NCBI GenBank assembly: GCA_036141575.1
Contig: JAYZXF010000018.1
Span: 613-64,612, forward strand
Origin: Pseudomonadota bacterium
GTDB taxonomy: Bacteria > Pseudomonadota > Alphaproteobacteria > UBA2136 > JAPKEQ01
DNA length: 64,000 nucleotides
Direction of reading: 5' to 3'
Each line of letters begins with the position of its first letter. The stretch's first letter is position 1. Below, piece after piece: positions 13,357-35,673 of the stretch. The position numbers were made by a program, and so were the translations under genes. The notes beneath the pieces are model-generated. The model had not been told where the DNA came from, searched no databases, and saw only the letters and a program-made list of their open reading frames with translations.

Positions 13357-14253
13357 TTATGACGCGTTCTTATGGGAAGCCTTAGGAGCGTCGTGTTTAT
13401 GTTTATCAATATCTCTATGTCTTAGGGTGACACGGAAGCCTTTTTCTTTAAGAGCCTCTTCAACATTCATGGCCATTGTGACACTACGGTGAGCTCCACC
13501 AGTGCAGCCAATAGCGACAGTTGCATAAGGGCGGTCTAGTGTTTCAAAGATAGGAAGCTGGAATGCCAGGAGGTCTAAAATACGATCAGCTGTTGGGGTA
13601 AAGTTATCGTCAGTTTTTACGTAAGAGCGCACCTTTTCGCTTTCGCCTGTGTATGGCTTAAGGCTGGGTTCCCAATGGGGGTTTTTTAGGTGTCTTACAT
13701 CAAAGACCATGTCCGCCATAGTGGGCATGCCATGCTTAAACCCGAAGCTGGTCACAAACACTTGCATATGGGTGTGTTGTGTATCATCAAACTGTGCTTC
13801 AAGAACACTCCAGAAGTTTGCTGGTGTAAAACCAGAGGTATCAATAGAGAACGTAGCTTTATCTTTGAGAGGGGCAAGGAGAGTTTCTTCTAGGGCAAGG
13901 CTTTCATCAATAGGGCGTCCCATAGCGAGTGGGTGGCGGCGACGGTTTGTTGAAAAGCGTTTAAGAAGTTCAGCAGGTGAAGCTGTGAGATACAGAATAT
14001 CAACTTTAATATCTTTAAGATGATCTAGCTCTTCTGCAAAAGTGCTTGCATGTGTTTCCAGCTCTCTTGTGCGAACATCAACGCCAAGGGCCAGTTTGTC
14101 TGGCAGAGCTGATTGATCAGAAAGGAGTGGGGCCATGAGGGAGAGGGGCATATTATCAATACATTCAAAGCCCATATCCTCAAGGCATTTAAGTGCCTCA
14201 GACTTACCAGCACCAGACAGGCCTGTCACAATCACGATACGTTTTTGAGTCAT
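13357..14253 (-). CDS. rapZ: RNase adapter protein RapZ (YhbJ)
   Basis: N-terminal VTGLSGAGKS P-loop, C-terminal IGCTGGAHRSV motif. Confidence 0.9.
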   Translation of the reverse strand: MTQKRIVIVTGLSGAGKSEALKCLEDMGFECIDNMPLSLMAPLLSDQSALPDKLALGVDVRTRELETHASTFAEELDHLKDIKVDILYLTASPAELLKRFSTNRRRHPLAMGRPIDESLALEETLLAPLKDKATFSIDTSGFTPANFWSVLEAQFDDTQHTHMQVFVTSFGFKHGMPTMADMVFDVRHLKNPHWEPSLKPYTGESEKVRSYVKTDDNFTPTADRILDLLAFQLPIFETLDRPYATVAIGCTGGAHRSVTMAMNVEEALKEKGFRVTLRHRDIDKHKHDAPKASHKNAS

Positions 14254-14268
14254 ATGATCTTTTTCTTC

Positions 14269-14302
14269 TTTTTATCCCTATCAAATTTTTATCCCTATCA
14301 AA
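14269..14302. repeat. perfect tandem duplication of a 17-nt unit (tttttatccctatcaaa x2) between the hpf terminator and the rapZ start
   Basis: Read directly: 14269-14285 and 14286-14302 are identical. Confidence 0.95.
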
Positions 14303-14326
14303 AAGTATGCGGGGTAAAAACCCCGC
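14300..14326 (-). terminator. rho-independent terminator after hpf
   Basis: Stem gcgggg / ccccgc with loop taaaaa, followed by a T-run on the minus strand. Confidence 0.7.
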
Positions 14327-14344
14327 ACACAATATTTTTTCGGT

Positions 14345-14974
14345 TTAGCCAGCAGCCTGAAGCTGTTCTGTACCTTCCCTGTGTGGCTCAACCCACCCAA
14401 TCGTGCCAGATGGCTCACGGTAAACTACGTTGAGGTCACCTGATTTCGGGTTTTGGAAGATGAAGAAGTTTGTGTGAAGCAAGTCCATCTGCATCACAGC
14501 TTCGTCCACTGTAAGGGTTTGAATATTACGTACATCTTTATGCTCAATCTTTGGCATAAACTCAGCAAACATGTCATCTGGGAAATCTTCTAGAGAAGAC
14601 TCTTCAACTGTTTGGTGACGTAGAGAGATGGCTTGTGCCTGCTCTTCAATAGCAACCAGACGTTCGTTTTTCTCCATACGACGGTTCAGGTGCTTGTTCA
14701 TGCGACCTTTGTACTTATCAATTTGTTTGAGCAGTTTGCTGCATGCATCGTCTGTTGCAAGGTAAAGGTCTGCGCCTTCACCTGCTGCGCGCATGTTAAG
14801 TCCGCTTGCAAAAAGCGTAATTTCAGACACAAATTTGTGACCATCTTTTTTAAGACTCACATCAGCTTCATGAATTTGGCTGAAAATGTTCGTCAGTTGA
14901 GAGAGTTTTTCCTCAATATGTGCTTTGAGTGTGTCACCTGTGTCAACGTGTAGTCCTGCGATAGATAGCTTCAT
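14345..14974 (-). CDS. hpf: ribosome hibernation promoting factor (long form)
   Basis: N-terminal MKLSIAGLHVDTGDTLKAHIEEKL of the RaiA/HPF family plus a C-terminal extension; lies directly downstream of rpoN. Confidence 0.85.
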   Translation of the reverse strand: MKLSIAGLHVDTGDTLKAHIEEKLSQLTNIFSQIHEADVSLKKDGHKFVSEITLFASGLNMRAAGEGADLYLATDDACSKLLKQIDKYKGRMNKHLNRRMEKNERLVAIEEQAQAISLRHQTVEESSLEDFPDDMFAEFMPKIEHKDVRNIQTLTVDEAVMQMDLLHTNFFIFQNPKSGDLNVVYREPSGTIGWVEPHREGTEQLQAAG

Positions 14975-15011
14975 TTGCTACTCTCCCTTTGTTTTTTATT
15001 TTACTAAAATT

Positions 15012-15039
15012 AGTATAGCGCAGCTTGTGCCCCATCTAA
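15012..15039 (-). promoter_or_regulatory. candidate sigma-70 promoter for hpf (TTAGAT-N16-TATACT)
   Basis: Minus-strand hexamers lie at 15039-15034 and 15017-15012, about 38 nt upstream of the hpf ATG and downstream of the rpoN terminator. Confidence 0.35.
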
Positions 15040-15094
15040 AGATTTATGGGGTGGTGCACCAATATTTTTTCCTTAAAAACCAACAAAAATTGCA

Positions 15095-15138
15095 TACAGA
15101 AAACATCCTTAAAAAGCCTTACTTTTAAGGGGATGTTT
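15095..15138 (-). terminator. rho-independent terminator after rpoN
   Basis: About 14-bp stem (aaacatccttaaaa / ttttaagg-gg-atgttt) with a 2-nt bulge, followed by TTTTCTGT on the minus strand. Confidence 0.7.
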
Positions 15139-15160
15139 ACCTATTTAATTTGCTGATTTT

Positions 15161-16591
15161 TTAGAAACGGATGCGGCGCCCCGTTGTCGATGGAATGTTC
15201 ATCGCTTCACGGTACTTGGCAACGGTACGACGAGCGACGTCGACACCTTCGCGTTTTAGCATGCCCACAAGCTTCTCATCGCTGAGAGGTTTGCGTGCGT
15301 CTTCATTATCAATTAGGCGCTTAATCATTTGTTTCACACTTTCAGAAGCCACGCCAACTTGGCCACCTGTTGTGTTGATTGCGCTTGAGAAAAAGTATTT
15401 GAGCTCAAATACACCCATTGGTGTTTGCATGTACTTGCCGTTTGTCACACGTGAAACTGTAGACTCGTGAACATCAACAAGTTCAGCAACATCTTTAAGG
15501 GTGAGGGGCTGAAGGTACTCAGGACCAAACTCGAAGAAATCTTTTTGTTTTTCTAGAATAGCGCCTGCCACCTTATGGATTGTACGCGCGCGTTGCTCTA
15601 GGCTTTTCATGAGCCATTGGGCACGGCTCATGCGTTCGTTAATAAATTGTTTTTCTTCAGTGTTCTTTGTTGAGAATCCACCATTGACAAGAACCTTAGG
15701 CATCGCTTCAGCATTAAGCTCTTGCATCCATTCACCTTTTTCGTTCTTACGAATAATCACATCTGGGATGACATTTGAAGCGTTATCGCTGCCGTATTTC
15801 AGGCCTGGTTTAGGGTTGAGTGTTGTAATCGAAGCAATGAGTTCTTCAATTTGATCATGAGAAACCCCTGCCATTTTGGCAAGTTTACCAAATTCTTTGC
15901 GGGCCAAAACTTCAAGGTTATCAAGGATAACATCATGGGCTTCACTGTAGAGGCCTTCGCTTACAAGTTGAAGCTTCAGGCACTCTGCAAGGCTTCTTGC
16001 GCCTACGCCAGCTGGCTCAAATGTTTGGATCATAGAAAGAACCTGAGTGATCTGGTGTTCTTTTAATTTGAGGCGTTCTGCCATTTGTTTGGCATCTGCT
16101 TGCAAGTAGCCAGCATCGTCAATGGCATCAATCAGGTAGTGTCCGATAAAGAGTTGAACAGGATCGTTTACGGCTTCACCAAGTTGTGTTGTCAGGTGAT
16201 CCTTAAGTGTAAGCTCTTTTGTAGCTGTATTTTCCCAGTAGCTATCATCTGTATCATTAAAAGATCCACCAGAAGAACTTGCTCCCATACTTGGGCTTTC
16301 ATACATGTTGTCCCATGAGTGATCAAGCGCAAGGCTCTCATCATTATCGCTCATAGAGGTGTTTTCAAGGTGATCTGCTGTGTCAGTTGTTTTTGTTTCA
16401 AACTCAGCAGAAGACTCAACTTCTGTCACGCCATCATCTTTTTGAAGGAAAGGATTTTCGAGAATTTCTGAATCAATAAACTCGTTCAGGTCAACCATAG
16501 GCATCTGCAAAAGCTTAATTGCCATCTGCAATTGCGGCGTCATAACCAGGCCTTGGCCAAGTTTGATATCTAGCTTCTGTGTAAGTGCCAT
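15161..16591 (-). CDS. rpoN: RNA polymerase sigma-54 factor
   Basis: N-terminal MALTQKLDIKLGQGLVMTPQLQ, C-terminal RpoN box ARRTVAKYRE. Confidence 0.95.
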   Translation of the reverse strand: MALTQKLDIKLGQGLVMTPQLQMAIKLLQMPMVDLNEFIDSEILENPFLQKDDGVTEVESSAEFETKTTDTADHLENTSMSDNDESLALDHSWDNMYESPSMGASSSGGSFNDTDDSYWENTATKELTLKDHLTTQLGEAVNDPVQLFIGHYLIDAIDDAGYLQADAKQMAERLKLKEHQITQVLSMIQTFEPAGVGARSLAECLKLQLVSEGLYSEAHDVILDNLEVLARKEFGKLAKMAGVSHDQIEELIASITTLNPKPGLKYGSDNASNVIPDVIIRKNEKGEWMQELNAEAMPKVLVNGGFSTKNTEEKQFINERMSRAQWLMKSLEQRARTIHKVAGAILEKQKDFFEFGPEYLQPLTLKDVAELVDVHESTVSRVTNGKYMQTPMGVFELKYFFSSAINTTGGQVGVASESVKQMIKRLIDNEDARKPLSDEKLVGMLKREGVDVARRTVAKYREAMNIPSTTGRRIRF

Positions 16592-16732
16592 GATTCTTCC
16601 CCTATTTGATTGTATTATACGCTAAAGAGGCGCAGTGCTCTATATTCTATGGGAAGATAGCCAAGGGAATTGTGCTTAAAAAATCACAACTTACGAAAAT
16701 CAAGGGGTTAAGAGGAGGTTTTTCCTGACATG

Positions 16733-16880
16733 TTTGGCATATTTTTTGCATATTGTCAGAAAATCAATCATAAGCGGCTCTCCTGACAGTACGAATTATC
16801 CAATCAATACTTTATATGGGCGATTATTTAGTTTTCTCATCGCTTAAGTACGCTTTGCTTATACTTTACACTCTTCTAAA
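16733..16880. repeat. intergenic repeat, family 2, copy A (rpoN-lptB spacer)
   Basis: Aligns with 36759-36911. The core tcgcttaagtac ... tactttac.ctc.tctaaaa is nearly identical, and an aaaatcaa block is shared upstream. Confidence 0.75.
16734..16749 (+). promoter_or_regulatory. near-consensus sigma-54 -24/-12 promoter (TGGCAT-N5-TTGCA) on the + strand, divergent from rpoN
   Basis: TGGCAT 16734-16739, spacer atttt, TTGCA 16745-16749. GG-N10-GC spacing is exact. A dyad TTGTG-N9-CACAA (16670-16688) lies about 80 nt upstream of the predicted start site. Confidence 0.5.
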
Positions 16881-16945
16881 AATAAATTTTCATCCCATAG
16901 CGCCCTTTTTAGGGCTTAAATGTATTCTTGAATAATTCGGTAAAG

Positions 16946-17701
16946 CTAAGAAAGCTTAAAGTCCTCACCAAGGTAGACTTTACGTACACTTTCGTTGTTT
17001 ACGATGTCTTCAGGTGTGCCTTCCATAATCACACGGCCTTCATGAAGAATATACGCACGATCTACAATGCTGAGCGTTTCGCGTACGTTATGATCGGTAA
17101 TGAGAACACCAATACCACGTGTTTTCAGATCAGACACAAGCGCTCGAATATCACCAATGGCAATTGGATCGATCCCCGCAAAAGGTTCATCAAGGAGAAT
17201 ATATGTTGGGTTAGATGCAAGGCCGCGGGCAATTTCAACCCGACGACGCTCACCACCCGACAAGGCAACAGCTGGTGCATGACGAATGCGACCAAGGCCA
17301 AAATCTTGTAGGAGTTGTTCAAGGCGGTTTTGAACCCAAACCTTATCTTTGCTCATGACTTGAAGAATGGCGCGAATGTTATCTTCAACGCTCATGCCTC
17401 TAAAAATAGATGGTTCTTGAGGAAGGTAACCAAGACCTTGACGGGCACGTTTATAAACAGGCCAGTCTGTTACGTCCTTGCTGTCCATCGTAATTTCACC
17501 AGAATCAACAGTGTTAAGACCTGCAACAGCATAAAACGTAGATGTTTTACCTGCGCCGTTAGGGCCTAGGAGGGCTACAACTTCACCACGGCTGACATGT
17601 AGCGATACATCGTTAAGAATTGTACGCTTTTTGATAACTTTTTTGAGGCCTCTCGCTACAAGACCTGCATCAGTTTGTGATGGTTGTGCTTTTTTGTTCA
17701 T
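16946..17701 (-). CDS. lptB: LPS export ABC transporter ATP-binding protein
   Basis: GPNGAGKTS Walker A, LSGGERRR signature; follows lptA. Confidence 0.9.
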
Positions 17702-18168
17702 TATTCCCCGAGTGTAAAAGAGCCTTTAACGCGTCCAGACTCTGTTCCTTTTAGATTGATGTCCCCTGTCTCTAAGTTATAGGAGAGTGCGCTTCCTTTC
17801 AAGGCGTTTTGTCCCTGAAGCAGCACAACGTCACCAGTAAGGGTTATAACAGATGATGTTGGGTTATAGATAGCTTTTTTACCTGAAGCTGTCGTCTCAT
17901 CATAAAGAATTGTTACGTTACCCTCAGCAACAATAGAGCGGAAATCATTCTCGTCTCCATCAAAATGCGCCTTAATATGATCAGCACCAATTGTGATTCT
18001 GCCTTGTGAAATCTTGACGTTACCTGTGAAATTGGCAACTTTATAGGTTTGAGAAACGTGAAGTTTATCCGCTTCAATATTGATCTTTTCTTTTGTAAGG
18101 CCTTTTTCTTCAGCGTGAAGAGTTGTAGGCAAGCTGAGGAGTAAAGTTAGGGCTAAGATTGTTTTCAT
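17701..18168 (-). CDS. lptA: LPS transport periplasmic protein LptA (OstA-like)
   Basis: Signal peptide, beta-rich 155 aa, lies between lptC and lptB with 1-4 nt overlaps. Confidence 0.7.
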
Positions 18169-18791
18169 TTTTTAATAAAGCCTCCTTTTTTCATATCCCA
18201 AAGAGAGGGGTCAATCGTGACTTGGATGTTACGAAGTTCGATTTCTTTGCCGTGATTGCTGGCAATAAGCTGGTCAGAAAGTAGGGACATACCAATACCG
18301 CTCATACTCAGAGGGCCAACCGTTTCAATTTCTCTATCTTTAATATTGCCAGTGATGCCTTCTGTTTTAAGAGTATAGCCATAACCAAGAACAGCAACGC
18401 TACCTGTTAGAGCAATGTCTTGTGTAATAGGGTTGAAGTGGCCTGACCTTGCATCAATTTCAATATGGCCACCGGTTGAAAGAGAAAGAAGCGCTTTAAT
18501 GGCTTGTAGGCCAATATCGCTTTGGTTTTCATCTTCTGTGTGAGTCGCACTTTCCGCTTGGATATCCCATGAGCGGCCATCAGCATCCTCACCTGTATAG
18601 CGAGGAGACATCATTTTAGTTTCCCCTACGGCTTCTTGGATATCATCTGAGGTGAAAGAGCGTTTTTCGGCAGCAGGATCAAACTGAATGCGCTCAATAT
18701 CATCATTACCACCCGTTGTGAACAGCAGCACAGTTGCAAGGCCTGCAAGGCCAATAAGTGCAACTTTAATAAACCAAATACGGTTGTTCAC
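18165..18791 (-). CDS. lptC: LPS export protein LptC
   Basis: Single N-terminal TM and a periplasmic beta-rich domain. Called mainly from its position between kdsD and lptA. Confidence 0.6.
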   Translation of the reverse strand: MNNRIWFIKVALIGLAGLATVLLFTTGGNDDIERIQFDPAAEKRSFTSDDIQEAVGETKMMSPRYTGEDADGRSWDIQAESATHTEDENQSDIGLQAIKALLSLSTGGHIEIDARSGHFNPITQDIALTGSVAVLGYGYTLKTEGITGNIKDREIETVGPLSMSGIGMSLLSDQLIASNHGKEIELRNIQVTIDPSLWDMKKGGFIKK

Positions 18792-18805
18792 GGAAGTATC
18801 CTAAC

Positions 18806-19792
18806 TTAGATAACGCCAGCTTGTAGGCAGTGGTGAATGTGAATCAGGCCTTTAACCTTGTTCTCGCTGTCCACAACAAAAATAGCTGTTTTGTTTGGTG
18901 GAGACGTCATCAGCTTTACAGCTTCAACAGCAAGGGCTTCATCCGAAATTGTGATTGGTGAAGGTGTCATAACATCTTCAACAGTCTTTTCAAGAAGGCC
19001 TTCACCCATGTGACGTTTCAAATCACCATCTGTAATCATACCTTTCAGAGTGCCAGTTGTATCAATGATACCTACACCGCCAAGGTTCTTTTCTGTCATC
19101 TCAAGCAGAGCGTCTGCCATAGATGTGTTTTCATCAACAAGAGGTAGATCTTTACCTGTCGCCATAATGTCGCGTACAGAAAGCATTTGGCTACCAAGTT
19201 TTCCACCAGGGTGGAACTTATGGAAATCTTCAGCTTCAAAACCTTTGCGGTGCATCACAGTAATCGCTAGAGCGTCACCGAGTGCCATTGTCGCTGTTGT
19301 TGATGTGCTCGGTGCCTTACCAACAGGGCAAGCTTCGCCGCTAATATGTGTGTTGAGGATAATATCAGAGGCTTTAGCCAGTGTAGACTCAGGCTTACTG
19401 ACCATGCAAATAAGAGGCACACTGTAACGCTTGCAGTAATGAATCATATCACTGAGTTCTTTTGTTTCGCCGCTATTGCTAAGCGCAATAACAGCATCTT
19501 CTTCTGTAATCATACCAAGGTCACCATGGCTGGCTTCAGCTGGGTGAACAAAGAAACAAGGTGTACCTGTGCTGGCAAATGTTGCAGCCATTTTGTTACC
19601 AACATGGCCAGATTTACCAATACCAGTAATCACCACACGACCTTTTAGGTTTTCAAGACATTCAACAGCTTTTTTAAAACTGTCATCTAGCATGTCTGCA
19701 AGGTGTGTAAGGGCTTGTGCTTCTTCGTTTAGGACACGCTTCGCTTCGTCCAGTGAAACTTCAGAAGATTGTTTAAGGGCAACGACGTTCAT
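18806..19792 (-). CDS. kdsD: arabinose-5-phosphate isomerase (KpsF/GutQ family; SIS + 2 CBS)
   Basis: SIS motif GIGKSGHVG and a C-terminal tandem CBS region. Confidence 0.85.
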   Translation of the reverse strand: MNVVALKQSSEVSLDEAKRVLNEEAQALTHLADMLDDSFKKAVECLENLKGRVVITGIGKSGHVGNKMAATFASTGTPCFFVHPAEASHGDLGMITEEDAVIALSNSGETKELSDMIHYCKRYSVPLICMVSKPESTLAKASDIILNTHISGEACPVGKAPSTSTTATMALGDALAITVMHRKGFEAEDFHKFHPGGKLGSQMLSVRDIMATGKDLPLVDENTSMADALLEMTEKNLGGVGIIDTTGTLKGMITDGDLKRHMGEGLLEKTVEDVMTPSPITISDEALAVEAVKLMTSPPNKTAIFVVDSENKVKGLIHIHHCLQAGVI

Positions 19793-19815
19793 AATGTGAC
19801 TCTCAATACTTTAAA

Positions 19816-20439
19816 TTAACGGTGCGAGAAAATATCTGCTTCTTCCCAACCACCAAGGTCGAGTTGAGCGCGCACAGGGAGATAGTTAAATGACGCATCG
19901 GCCAGTTCAACACGATCAAGCTCTTTGAGTTTTTCATCAAAGTAAATTTTAAGCTGGTGAAGGTAAATCACGTCACTTGCAGCGTAATGCTTTTGGCTTT
20001 CTGTAAGCTCAGGCGCTGACCAGTCGCTGCACTGCTCGCCCTTATCCATGTTTGTGCCAACAATTTGACCAACAAGAGCCTTAAGGCCGTGGCGGTCTGT
20101 GTAAGTGCGTACAAGTTTAGAAGCAATTTTGGTGCAGTATACTTTTTCAGTCATGACACCAAGGTAATGCTTCATTACGGCAATATCAAAACGGCCGTAA
20201 TGGAAAATCTTTAGAATTTTAGGGTTTTGAAGAAGAGCTTTTAGGTTTGGTGCATCGTAGTTTGTGCCATCAAACTTAATGAGCCATACGTTACCTTCAC
20301 CATCACCTACTTGAACAAGGCAAAGGCGGTCACGCTTAATGTTCAGGCCAAGCGTCTCTGTATCGACAGCTGCAATGCCATTATTAAAAACTACGCCATC
20401 AGGTAGGTCACCGTGGCATTCTACAATGTTTACACTCAT
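19816..20439 (-). CDS. DEDD 3'-5' exonuclease, short RNase D-like
   Basis: AVDTETLGL (ExoI), HYGRFD (ExoII), YAASDVIYL (ExoIII). ATG at 20439 preferred over GTG at 20466. Confidence 0.75.
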   Translation of the reverse strand: MSVNIVECHGDLPDGVVFNNGIAAVDTETLGLNIKRDRLCLVQVGDGEGNVWLIKFDGTNYDAPNLKALLQNPKILKIFHYGRFDIAVMKHYLGVMTEKVYCTKIASKLVRTYTDRHGLKALVGQIVGTNMDKGEQCSDWSAPELTESQKHYAASDVIYLHQLKIYFDEKLKELDRVELADASFNYLPVRAQLDLGGWEEADIFSHR

Positions 20440-34830: not shown

Positions 34831-35673
34831 ATGAGTTGGTTAAAAGAAATTGTACGTCCAAAAATCGCAACCCGATCTAAGCGGGATGTGACGCCTAATG
34901 TGTTTTCTAAATGTCCATCATGCGCAGAAATGCTGTATGAACGTGACCTGAAGAAAAATAACCGTGTCTGCATGAGTTGTGGGCATCATTTGCGTATTGA
35001 TGTGGAGACACGCCTGAACCTGATGATGGATGAAGGCTTTAAAGATGTGCCTCTTAAGCTTGACCATACAGATCCAATTGGTTTTAAAGATCGTAAGCGT
35101 TACAGTGATCGCCTCCGTGACGCAGGTTTCCAGAAGCGTGGCCGTGACGCCTATCGTGTAGTTAAAGGAACAATTGAAGGTGCGCCAGCAGTAGTCTGCG
35201 TATTTGATTTTGCTTTCATGGCAGGCTCGATGGGAACGCATGTTGGAAGTGCTCTTGTAAAAGCCGCTGAAAAAGCAGCAAAAGATAAGGCTGCCCTTAT
35301 TATTGTACCCGCTTCAGGTGGTGCACGTATGCAGGAAGGGATTCTCTCTCTTATGCAAATGGCACGCTCAACCGCTGCTATTCAAGAGGTGAAAGAAAAA
35401 GGCCTACCTTATATTGTGATGCTGACTGACCCAACAACGGGTGGTGTGAGTGCATCCTTTGCAATGCTTGGCGATATTATTGCTGCTGAACCTGGAGCTC
35501 TTATTGGATTTGCCGGTCCACGTGTGATTCAACAAACCATTGGTGAAACACTGCCAGAAGGTTTCCAAACAGCTGAGTACCTGCTTGAAAATGGTATGGT
35601 AGACAGTGTCGTGCCACGTGCTGAGCAAAAAGCATGGTTTGGTAAAACGCTCAATATTTTGATGAAGCGATAA
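34831..35673 (+). CDS. accD: acetyl-CoA carboxylase carboxyltransferase beta subunit
   Basis: N-terminal zinc ribbon CPSC...CMSCGHH and the carboxyltransferase domain. Confidence 0.9.
   Translation: MSWLKEIVRPKIATRSKRDVTPNVFSKCPSCAEMLYERDLKKNNRVCMSCGHHLRIDVETRLNLMMDEGFKDVPLKLDHTDPIGFKDRKRYSDRLRDAGFQKRGRDAYRVVKGTIEGAPAVVCVFDFAFMAGSMGTHVGSALVKAAEKAAKDKAALIIVPASGGARMQEGILSLMQMARSTAAIQEVKEKGLPYIVMLTDPTTGGVSASFAMLGDIIAAEPGALIGFAGPRVIQQTIGETLPEGFQTAEYLLENGMVDSVVPRAEQKAWFGKTLNILMKR

Follow-up and report, generated by a model that had tools for sequence, protein, structure and literature searches.

An uncultured marine proteobacterium carries, in the spacer between lptB and rpoN, a short sequence that is very probably a real site for sigma-54, the product of rpoN. 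The site (16735-16750) lies within the 64,000 nt of DNA analyzed here (the 64-kb window) and faces away from rpoN, toward the 3' end of lptB. It is conserved, as purifying selection would predict, among relatives whose neutral sites are near saturation, and it is accompanied upstream by a dyad and by an exact match to the consensus of integration host factor (IHF). We put at about even the chance that the 35 bp around it (16725-16759) form a sigma-54 RNA polymerase binding site built as a complete activator-dependent promoter that couples to the rpoN region. How the level of sigma-54 is set in cells is poorly understood, and this locus offers, beside rpoN, a candidate element with sharp limits and under strong selection, in which the 35 bp, the IHF site and the dyad occupy ~170 bp at fixed spacing.

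A probable sigma-54 site between lptB and rpoN

The - strand of the window reads, in order, kdsD, lptC, lptA, lptB, rpoN, long-form hpf and rapZ. Within the spacer between lptB and rpoN, the + strand shows TGGCAT (16735-16740), ATTTT and TTGCA (16746-16750), with exactly 10 nt from GG to GC, and this sequence matches 10 of the 11 specified positions of the consensus TGGCAC-N5-TTGCW. A first-pass annotation of the same DNA had named a near-consensus sigma-54 motif here; the motif and its GG-N10-GC spacing are real, and the coordinates given for it were one base low.

A plain consensus count allowing at most one mismatch finds one match in the window against 4.5 expected in shuffled sequences, which is not significant, and a position weight matrix (PWM) was therefore built. 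The training set consisted of the 37 intergenic sigma-54 sites in Table 1 of a Yersinia pseudotuberculosis study that used chromatin immunoprecipitation sequencing (ChIP-seq) (PMC7657599). On this matrix of Yersinia sites, the 18-mer TTGGCATATTTTTTGCAT scores 20.46 bits; among the training sites the median score is 16.0 and the highest 20.65. It is the top match in the window, with a lead of 5.4 bits over the runner-up at 15.0 bits, and its score was attained in one of 200 random 64-kb sequences generated by a Markov-1 model. Matrix scoring had been proposed as a check in the first-pass annotation, and the site came through it.

Conservation among relatives

The genomes closest to the window are metagenome-assembled genomes (MAGs) labelled Alphaproteobacteria or Magnetococcales, and the nearest named RpoN proteins are just 42-45% identical. 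Three loci qualify as close relatives by RpoN identity (L001, 91%; L002, 90%; L059, 86%). As L001 and L002 are mutually close, the comparison comprises three effectively independent lineages: the window, L001/L002 and L059. Between these lineages the four-fold degenerate sites of rpoN and lptB retain 37-52% identity, which is near saturation.

Against this background, the block 16725-16759 keeps 33 of 35 nucleotides in each lineage, an outcome with P ~2e-8 if neutral identity is taken as 0.5. The block reads CTGACATG-t-TTGGCATATT-t-TTTGCAT-a-TTGTCAG, and its variable positions are 16733, 16744 and 16752. Position 16744 alone falls within the 18-mer scored by the matrix, between the -24 and -12 elements, with the other two flanking it. 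The GG and GC dinucleotides and their spacing are invariant in the orthologous spacers of L001, L002 and L059, where the orthologous site scores 19.95-20.46 bits; conservation of these dinucleotides was a further check put forward by the first-pass annotation, and it holds across three diverged lineages. As a whole, the ~200 nt of spacer nearest to rpoN consist of sharp conserved blocks between stretches of neutral identity (Table 1), with the DNA between blocks matching at 5-7/14 and 8-14/23 positions, and not one indel occurs in any of the three lineages from the rpoN -10 element through the third of the hexamer boxes described below. The pattern indicates that the sigma-54 site is under purifying selection across a saturated divergence.

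A separate observation concerns the third-ranked PWM match, TGGGCACGGCTCATGCGT at 15618-15635 (+ strand, 14.5 bits), which lies antisense inside the rpoN coding region. It is the same in L001 and one base off in L002, and coding constraint may suffice to explain this.

Layout of the predicted promoter

The first-pass annotation had also pointed to a dyad about 80 nt upstream of the predicted start. The dyad is present and conserved, with its center ~81 nt upstream, and its form is TTGTG-N10-CACAA at 16670-16689 rather than an N9 dyad at 16670-16688. Between this candidate enhancer site and the -24 element lies the IHF consensus match. The pattern WATCAANNNNTTR occurs 4 times in the 64 kb against 4.2 expected by chance, and the chance of a match falling in the ~55-bp interval between dyad and -24 element is ~0.004; an IHF site in this interval is frequent, though not universal, among sigma-54 promoters. 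The sole change among the lineages in the IHF-like block sits in the NNNN part of the consensus. As the IHF site was sought after the sigma-54 hypothesis had been adopted, and emerged from inspection of blocks already known to be conserved with no pre-planned scan, it is supporting evidence and not a fully independent test. Judged from the sequence, the dyad, the IHF site and the -24/-12 element stand in the order and at the distances of a textbook activator-dependent sigma-54 promoter. Whether the 18-mer at 16734-16751 is an activatable promoter is a question on which we are evenly divided.

Classical sigma-54 promoters that depend on a bacterial enhancer-binding protein (bEBP) and IHF include glnAp2, nifH, Pu and pspA. 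The window resembles them in the exact spacing of the -24 GG and -12 GC and in having an IHF consensus between the promoter and an upstream dyad. In the classical layout the dyad lies 80-150 bp upstream, and an enhancer at about -81 with IHF at about -57 resembles the pspA-type geometry. The window differs in having no downstream gene or conserved RNA, in being aimed at a convergent essential gene from its 3' side and in showing only one visible dyad.

On the other side of the dyad, rpoN has a predicted sigma-70 promoter of its own, with a perfect TATAAT and no good -35 element. The two predicted starts, ~16607 for rpoN and 16761 for the sigma-54 promoter, are back-to-back and ~154 bp apart.

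If these elements work together, sigma-54 holoenzyme would dock on TGGCAT-N5-TTGCA, an enhancer-binding protein would occupy TTGTG-N10-CACAA ~81 bp upstream, IHF would bend the DNA at about -57, and transcription would begin near 16761, toward lptB and away from rpoN. Such non-coding transcription would collide head-on with lptB read-through, and the sigma-54 polymerase would compete with overlapping sigma-70-type signals; an alternative route at the level of DNA would be supercoiling coupling with the divergent rpoN promoter. Expression around rpoN would thereby be tied to both the amount and the activity of sigma-54. We infer from the layout the binding, the firing, the kind of activator and an effect, of either sign, on rpoN or lptB, and feedback of sigma-54 on rpoN, an idea raised by the first-pass annotation, appears plausible.

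Table 1 Features of the lptB-rpoN spacer and its flanking genes, with identities of the window to L001 and L059. Signed distances are counted from the predicted sigma-54 start unless stated otherwise.
Feature	Position	Strand	Identity, L001	Identity, L059	Remarks
rpoN (sigma-54)	15161-16591	-			Full length; RpoN box ARRTVAKYR intact
Block GCGTATAAT on rpoN strand	16612-16622	-	10/11	9/11	Likely -10 element
TATAAT	16614-16619	-			Likely -10 of the rpoN sigma-70 promoter, a predicted function; 22 nt upstream of ATG
Block TTCTATG (CATAGAA on rpoN strand)	16645-16651		7/7	7/7	In -35 region of rpoN promoter
Dyad block	16662-16689		28/28 (also L002)	26/28	
Dyad TTGTG-N10-CACAA	16670-16689				Candidate enhancer (bEBP) site; center -81
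IHF-like block	16697-16710		13/14	13/14	
IHF consensus WATCAANNNNTTR, sequence AATCAAGGGGTTA	16698-16710	+			Exact match, center about -57; IHF binding predicted
Neutral spacer DNA	16711-16724		7/14	5/14	
Sigma-54 block	16725-16759		33/35	33/35	
CTGACA, box 1	16725-16730	+			-36 to -31; resembles a sigma-70 -35; invariant in all lineages
Sigma-54 -24/-12 element TTGGCATATTTTTTGCAT	16734-16751	+			GG 16736-37 (-25/-24), GC 16748-49 (-13/-12)
CATATT, sigma-70 -10-like hexamer	16749-16754	+			Overlaps -12 element; CATGTT in L001/L002, CATTTT in L059
TGTCAG, box 2 (inverted copy of box 1)	16754-16759				-7 to -2; invariant
Neutral DNA	16760-16782		12/23	8/23	
Predicted transcription start	16761	+			12 nt past the -12 C, placed by standard sigma-54 geometry; heads to the 3' end of lptB
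CTGACA, box 3	16783-16788	+	6/6	6/6	+23 to +28; 58 from box 1; 6/6 in every lineage
Insertion with 12-nt terminal inverted repeats	16792-16939				~150 nt; specific to the window, not in L001, L002 or L059
lptB	16946-17701	-			Sigma-54 promoter candidate points head-on at it

Evidence weighing against the promoter

Several observations weigh against a complete activator-dependent promoter at this site. To begin with, the case from conservation rests on the three effectively independent lineages only, and a scan of metagenome contigs for further close relatives found none. In the more distant relatives with 55-60% RpoN identity (L003 and L060-L066), whose spacers are not alignable to that of the window, the long lptB-rpoN spacers contain no comparable sigma-54 site. 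The element is therefore young, belonging to a clade of roughly genus or family level.

The partners that such a promoter would call for are likewise missing from view. No gene for a bEBP (GAFTGA motif) or for IHF/HU was found by motif across the 64-kb window, and none for an activator or IHF by Pfam in the ten neighboring open reading frames (ORFs); the presence of IHF in the host is an assumption made for a proteobacterium. In addition, an equally good reading takes the dyad and the IHF-like block as upstream elements of the rpoN sigma-70 promoter; counted from the predicted rpoN start, they lie at -72.5 (dyad center) and about -97 (IHF-like block).

A constrained product was not found either. 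The first-pass annotation had listed three possible outputs of the promoter, namely a 39-codon ORF, a short RNA and an antisense RNA running into the 3' end of lptB. Past 16761, no conserved ORF is common to the window, L001, L002 and L059, and the 39-codon ORF (16816-16935, not 16815-16934) was rejected as the product, since it lies inside an insertion (16792-16939) that the close relatives lack. The same insertion holds the hairpin GCCCTTTTTAGGGC, the sole terminator-like hairpin. A short RNA fared no better: a permissive Rfam scan of 14000-20000 returned chance-level matches only, no intrinsic terminator was found within 540 nt on either strand, and the covariation among related spacers that the first-pass annotation had suggested looking for is absent, with an RNAalifold covariation term of +0.19 that gives no support on either reading. 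A short RNA ending at the GCCCTTTTTAGGGC hairpin was rejected as a conserved feature, given that the hairpin belongs to the insertion and the terminator scan came back empty.

The antisense option is the only one that the geometry leaves. The - strand holds every ORF of 150 aa or more in the interval 8088-34702, and a + strand ORF is first encountered at 34831, which bears out the earlier statement that no + strand gene follows for about 18 kb. In the window, 185 nt separate the predicted start from the stop codon of lptB, and the distance is smaller in the relatives. Toward its 3' end, lptB shows no sign of being constrained by an overlapping transcript: identity at four-fold sites in codons 200-250 is 5/22, 8/22 and 10/22, the same as in the rest of the gene, and the last 50 codons carry no extra synonymous constraint. 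A constrained antisense overlap with lptB was rejected on this ground, and the definition of an antisense or excludon arrangement, a promoter aimed into a convergent neighbor, applies here by geometry only. A relic promoter of a lost divergent gene was considered as well; a tblastn search with a 256-aa ORF of L060 found no remnant in the window, and the strong selection seen at the site also speaks against it. In L060, a locus with 59% RpoN identity, this ORF (1426-2196, - strand, no Pfam match) stands divergently in the lptB-rpoN spacer.

As the sequence downstream is unconstrained, selection acts on the promoter and not on an RNA, which points to a role at the level of DNA. The output is probably the occupancy of the polymerase or the act of transcription and not the RNA sequence. 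If this is correct, the promoter is maintained for where and when a polymerase is positioned, and not for what is transcribed.

CTGACA/TGTCAG boxes and sigma-70-like signals

A last point on the opposing side is that a sigma-54 promoter alone does not explain the three invariant CTGACA/TGTCAG boxes, which alternate in orientation every 29 bp. The frame CTGACA-N23-TGTCAG is unique in the window, and a search of the window for further copies of this frame or of the dyad gave nothing informative. Box 3 is the only conserved element past the predicted start, with flanks at neutral identity. Box 1 is part of CTGACA-18-CATATT, which a consensus scan places on the + strand with 9 of 12 matches, overlapping the sigma-54 site and predicting the same start. 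This overlap of sigma-54 and sigma-70 signals at 16725-16759 is only suggestive, because the -10-like hexamer differs from lineage to lineage (CATGTT, CATTTT). The boxes may be sigma-70 -35-like elements, as sequences of the form (C/A)TGACA-18-TATAAT ahead of rpoN in L003 and L061 would suggest; they may also be half-sites of another regulator, or traces of a tandem duplication of a module of ~58-64 bp.

The boxes raise the question of whether the resemblance to sigma-54 is a coincidence, the conserved sequence being composed of sigma-70 elements with CTGACA as -35 boxes, or being the operator of another regulator that reads either the TGTCAG/CTGACA hexamers or a direct repeat T(G/T)GCAT at 11 bp spacing. 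Such a reading would account for three invariant boxes at fixed spacing outside the sigma-54 core, for the sigma-70-like sequences before rpoN in the two distant loci and for the fact that the low-information bases between -24 and -12 are conserved as well; the non-significant plain consensus count also agrees with it. It has to set aside a match of 20.5 bits found in just 0.5% of random 64-kb sequences, the invariance of every high-information sigma-54 position (the sole substitution in the 18-mer falls in the -24/-12 spacer), an IHF site and a dyad that suit the anatomy of a sigma-54 promoter, and sigma-70 -10-like hexamers that are poor and drift between lineages. We regard a coincidence as improbable.

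The boxes could also act as RNA in lptB-rpoN read-through, where on the rpoN strand they form two mutually exclusive helices of 6-10 bp (box 3 with box 2, or box 2 with box 1) that might serve as an attenuator or a processing signal. The extensions of these helices break in L059, such that only the invariant hexamers pair, neither hairpin is followed by a U-tract, and the covariation term and Rfam result given above offer no help. A structured leader, riboswitch or attenuator on the rpoN strand was rejected for absent covariation, and a role of the blocks as RNA is very improbable overall.

As an observation in its own right, the module around the sigma-54 site (16695-16790) looks tandemly duplicated in the window with a period of 58-64 bp, with GAAAATCAA and TCCTGACA occurring twice each. 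In L059, positions 2273-2382 contain a 34-nt repeat at 71% identity and ATGCAAAAAA twice. The -24 GG is kept in one copy of the duplicated module only.

Sigma-54 sites upstream of rpoN in other lineages

The 400 nt upstream of rpoN were surveyed with the same matrix in 29 unrelated loci (11.6 kb), at a threshold of at least 14.5 bits. Seven sites were found in these 11.6 kb and four in the remaining 171 kb of the same loci, that is 0.60 against 0.023 per kb, a ~26-fold difference. The survey is small, its control sequence consists largely of coding DNA, and several loci are related to one another. Five loci from Myxococcota-type MAGs (L006, L034, L035, L036 and L039) have sense-oriented sites of 14.5-17.3 bits located 65-130 nt before rpoN. 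In L019, the site merely faces a divergent polysaccharide-export gene. Three Clostridia-like loci with ~79% rpoN nucleotide identity (L008, ~2860-2900; L027 and L029, 2350-2400) carry TTGGCATAAAAATTGCAA upstream of rpoN/sigL, a site of 19.6 bits pointing away from rpoN and overlapping the terminator of an ABC-transporter (ABC-permease) operon that lies upstream in the same direction. This is the topology seen in the window, too, and the site is invariant while the terminator stem has a compensatory change in L027.

This recurrence upstream of rpoN makes a functional link between a sigma-54 site and the rpoN control region more credible, and the enrichment in unrelated lineages suggests that the principle may be general. 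We entertain, with more doubt than conviction, the broader possibility that a sigma-54 site in the rpoN control region is a recurrent, independently evolved device that reads and adjusts the sigma-54 level, represented here by a full enhancer/IHF promoter that would fire an unconstrained transcript away from rpoN against lptB read-through.

The same recurrence suits another possibility, in which the site is purely an operator. Sigma-54 polymerase would then sit on it as a stable closed complex that hardly or never fires, and rpoN would be negatively autoregulated. Occupancy would repress CTGACA-18-AAACAT on the rpoN strand and CTGACA-18-CATATT on the other, or would block lptB read-through, with the dyad and the IHF-like block belonging to the rpoN sigma-70 promoter. 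Consistent with this are the lack of a conserved transcript or terminator, the strong sigma-54 sites found in either orientation less than 400 nt upstream of rpoN in several unrelated lineages, the away-facing site in the three Clostridia-like loci, which have no divergent gene upstream of rpoN, and the negative autoregulation of rpoN in Rhizobium leguminosarum (PMC3538637). The position of the site speaks against it, as it is set back ~130 nt on the upstream side from the predicted proximal promoter of rpoN and would not occlude it; so does the weakness of the putative distal sigma-70 -10 hexamers, which match at 3-4 of 6 positions. In addition, an operator would make it an unneeded coincidence that a conserved exact IHF site and a dyad both stand on the proper side of the -24 element and at canonical distances from it. 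We consider a pure operator unlikely.

Comparison with known systems

The activator-dependent promoter proposed here would have a counterpart in glmY, which is transcribed from a sigma-54 promoter and a sigma-70 promoter that overlap each other, with IHF and an activator dyad of the form TGTC-N10-GACA (PMC3045617). In both cases a sigma-70 -10-like hexamer (CATATT in the window, CATAAT in glmY) overlaps the -12 TTGCA, which in the window predicts one start for both polymerases, and an N10-spaced upstream dyad (TGTG-N10-CACA in the window) is combined with an IHF consensus. A further parallel is that rapZ, whose product is a partner of GlmZ, shares an operon with rpoN in the window. The two systems differ in that glmY has three GlrR sites more than 100 bp upstream, compared with a single dyad at -81 in the window, and in the half-site, TGTC compared with TGTG. 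The window also has no GlmY/GlmZ-like RNA, as judged by Rfam and conservation, and its -10-like hexamer drifts.

Sigma-54 sites that do not lead into a gene are known from genome-wide mapping. In an E. coli ChIP-seq study, 8 of 50 intergenic sigma-54 sites face away from the neighboring genes (PMC4591121), and the Yersinia ChIP-seq study reports intergenic antisense sites (PMC7657599). The site in the window resembles the orphan and antisense sites of E. coli, Salmonella and Yersinia (PMC4591121, PMC3844500, PMC7657599) in being high-scoring, intergenic and away-facing, and possible roles for such sites are antisense transcription, interference and silent storage of holoenzyme. It differs from them in its conserved IHF site and dyad, in lying within the control region of the sigma-54 gene and in the clear signs of purifying selection. 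If it were only the promoter of an unconstrained transcript, it would simply add to the orphan sigma-54 sites that ChIP-seq work has already listed.

Negative autoregulation of rpoN is known for B. japonicum rpoN2, R. etli rpoN1 and P. putida. To our knowledge, which does not extend to the older papers, no cis element for rpoN autoregulation has been defined. The site in the window resembles the rhizobial cases in that it would link sigma-54 to its own gene. Those cases were defined genetically, including that of R. leguminosarum, for which negative autoregulation is stated in PMC3538637, whereas the site in the window is a candidate read from the sequence, clear of the predicted proximal promoter of rpoN. 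Its distance upstream from the predicted TATAAT promoter is ~130 nt, and the sigma-70-like signals with which it does overlap are weak. The novelty lies in the combination of features: a layout that corresponds to a full enhancer/IHF-type sigma-54 promoter, strongly selected, back-to-back with rpoN and with no constrained product.

The lptB-rpoN spacer and neighboring genes

The first-pass annotation had described the spacer as oversized, and at 354 nt (16592-16945) it is indeed long compared with the 47 nt of its counterpart in E. coli K-12. It is also typical of its clade. Long lptB-rpoN spacers occur in the distant relatives L003 and L060-L066 as well, and across ten distinct relatives the length ranges from 164 to 1122 nt; the large gap is a trait of the wider clade and nothing special to the window genome. 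The spacer of the window is lengthened further by the 16792-16939 insertion, and those of the close relatives are 108-123 nt shorter. The insertion is bounded by the terminal inverted repeats CGAATTATCCAA and TTGAATAATTCG and may be a miniature mobile element. No second copy was found in the window or in the other loci examined, and a repeated mobile element was rejected on account of this single copy.

Several features of the surrounding genes were recorded along the way. In L060 (5060-6416, - strand) and L064 (4609-6021, - strand), both with 58-59% RpoN identity, a gene for an NtrC-type enhancer-binding protein lies just past rpoN-hpf on the opposite strand. Its product has receiver, Sigma54_activat and HTH_8 domains, and no such gene is present in the 64-kb window. 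In L060 (1-609) and L063 (196-1278), lptC and lptA are seemingly fused, as LptC and LptD_N domains occur together. The Hpf protein of the window (13357-14974 region) is of the long form, with 209 aa and an S30AE C-terminal domain. The gene order in E. coli is rpoN-hpf-ptsN-rapZ; the gap between hpf and rapZ in the window measures 91 nt and contains no ORF of at least 150 aa (E. coli ptsN encodes 163 aa). Finally, rapZ is followed in the window by a gene for a PilT-like T2SSE ATPase.

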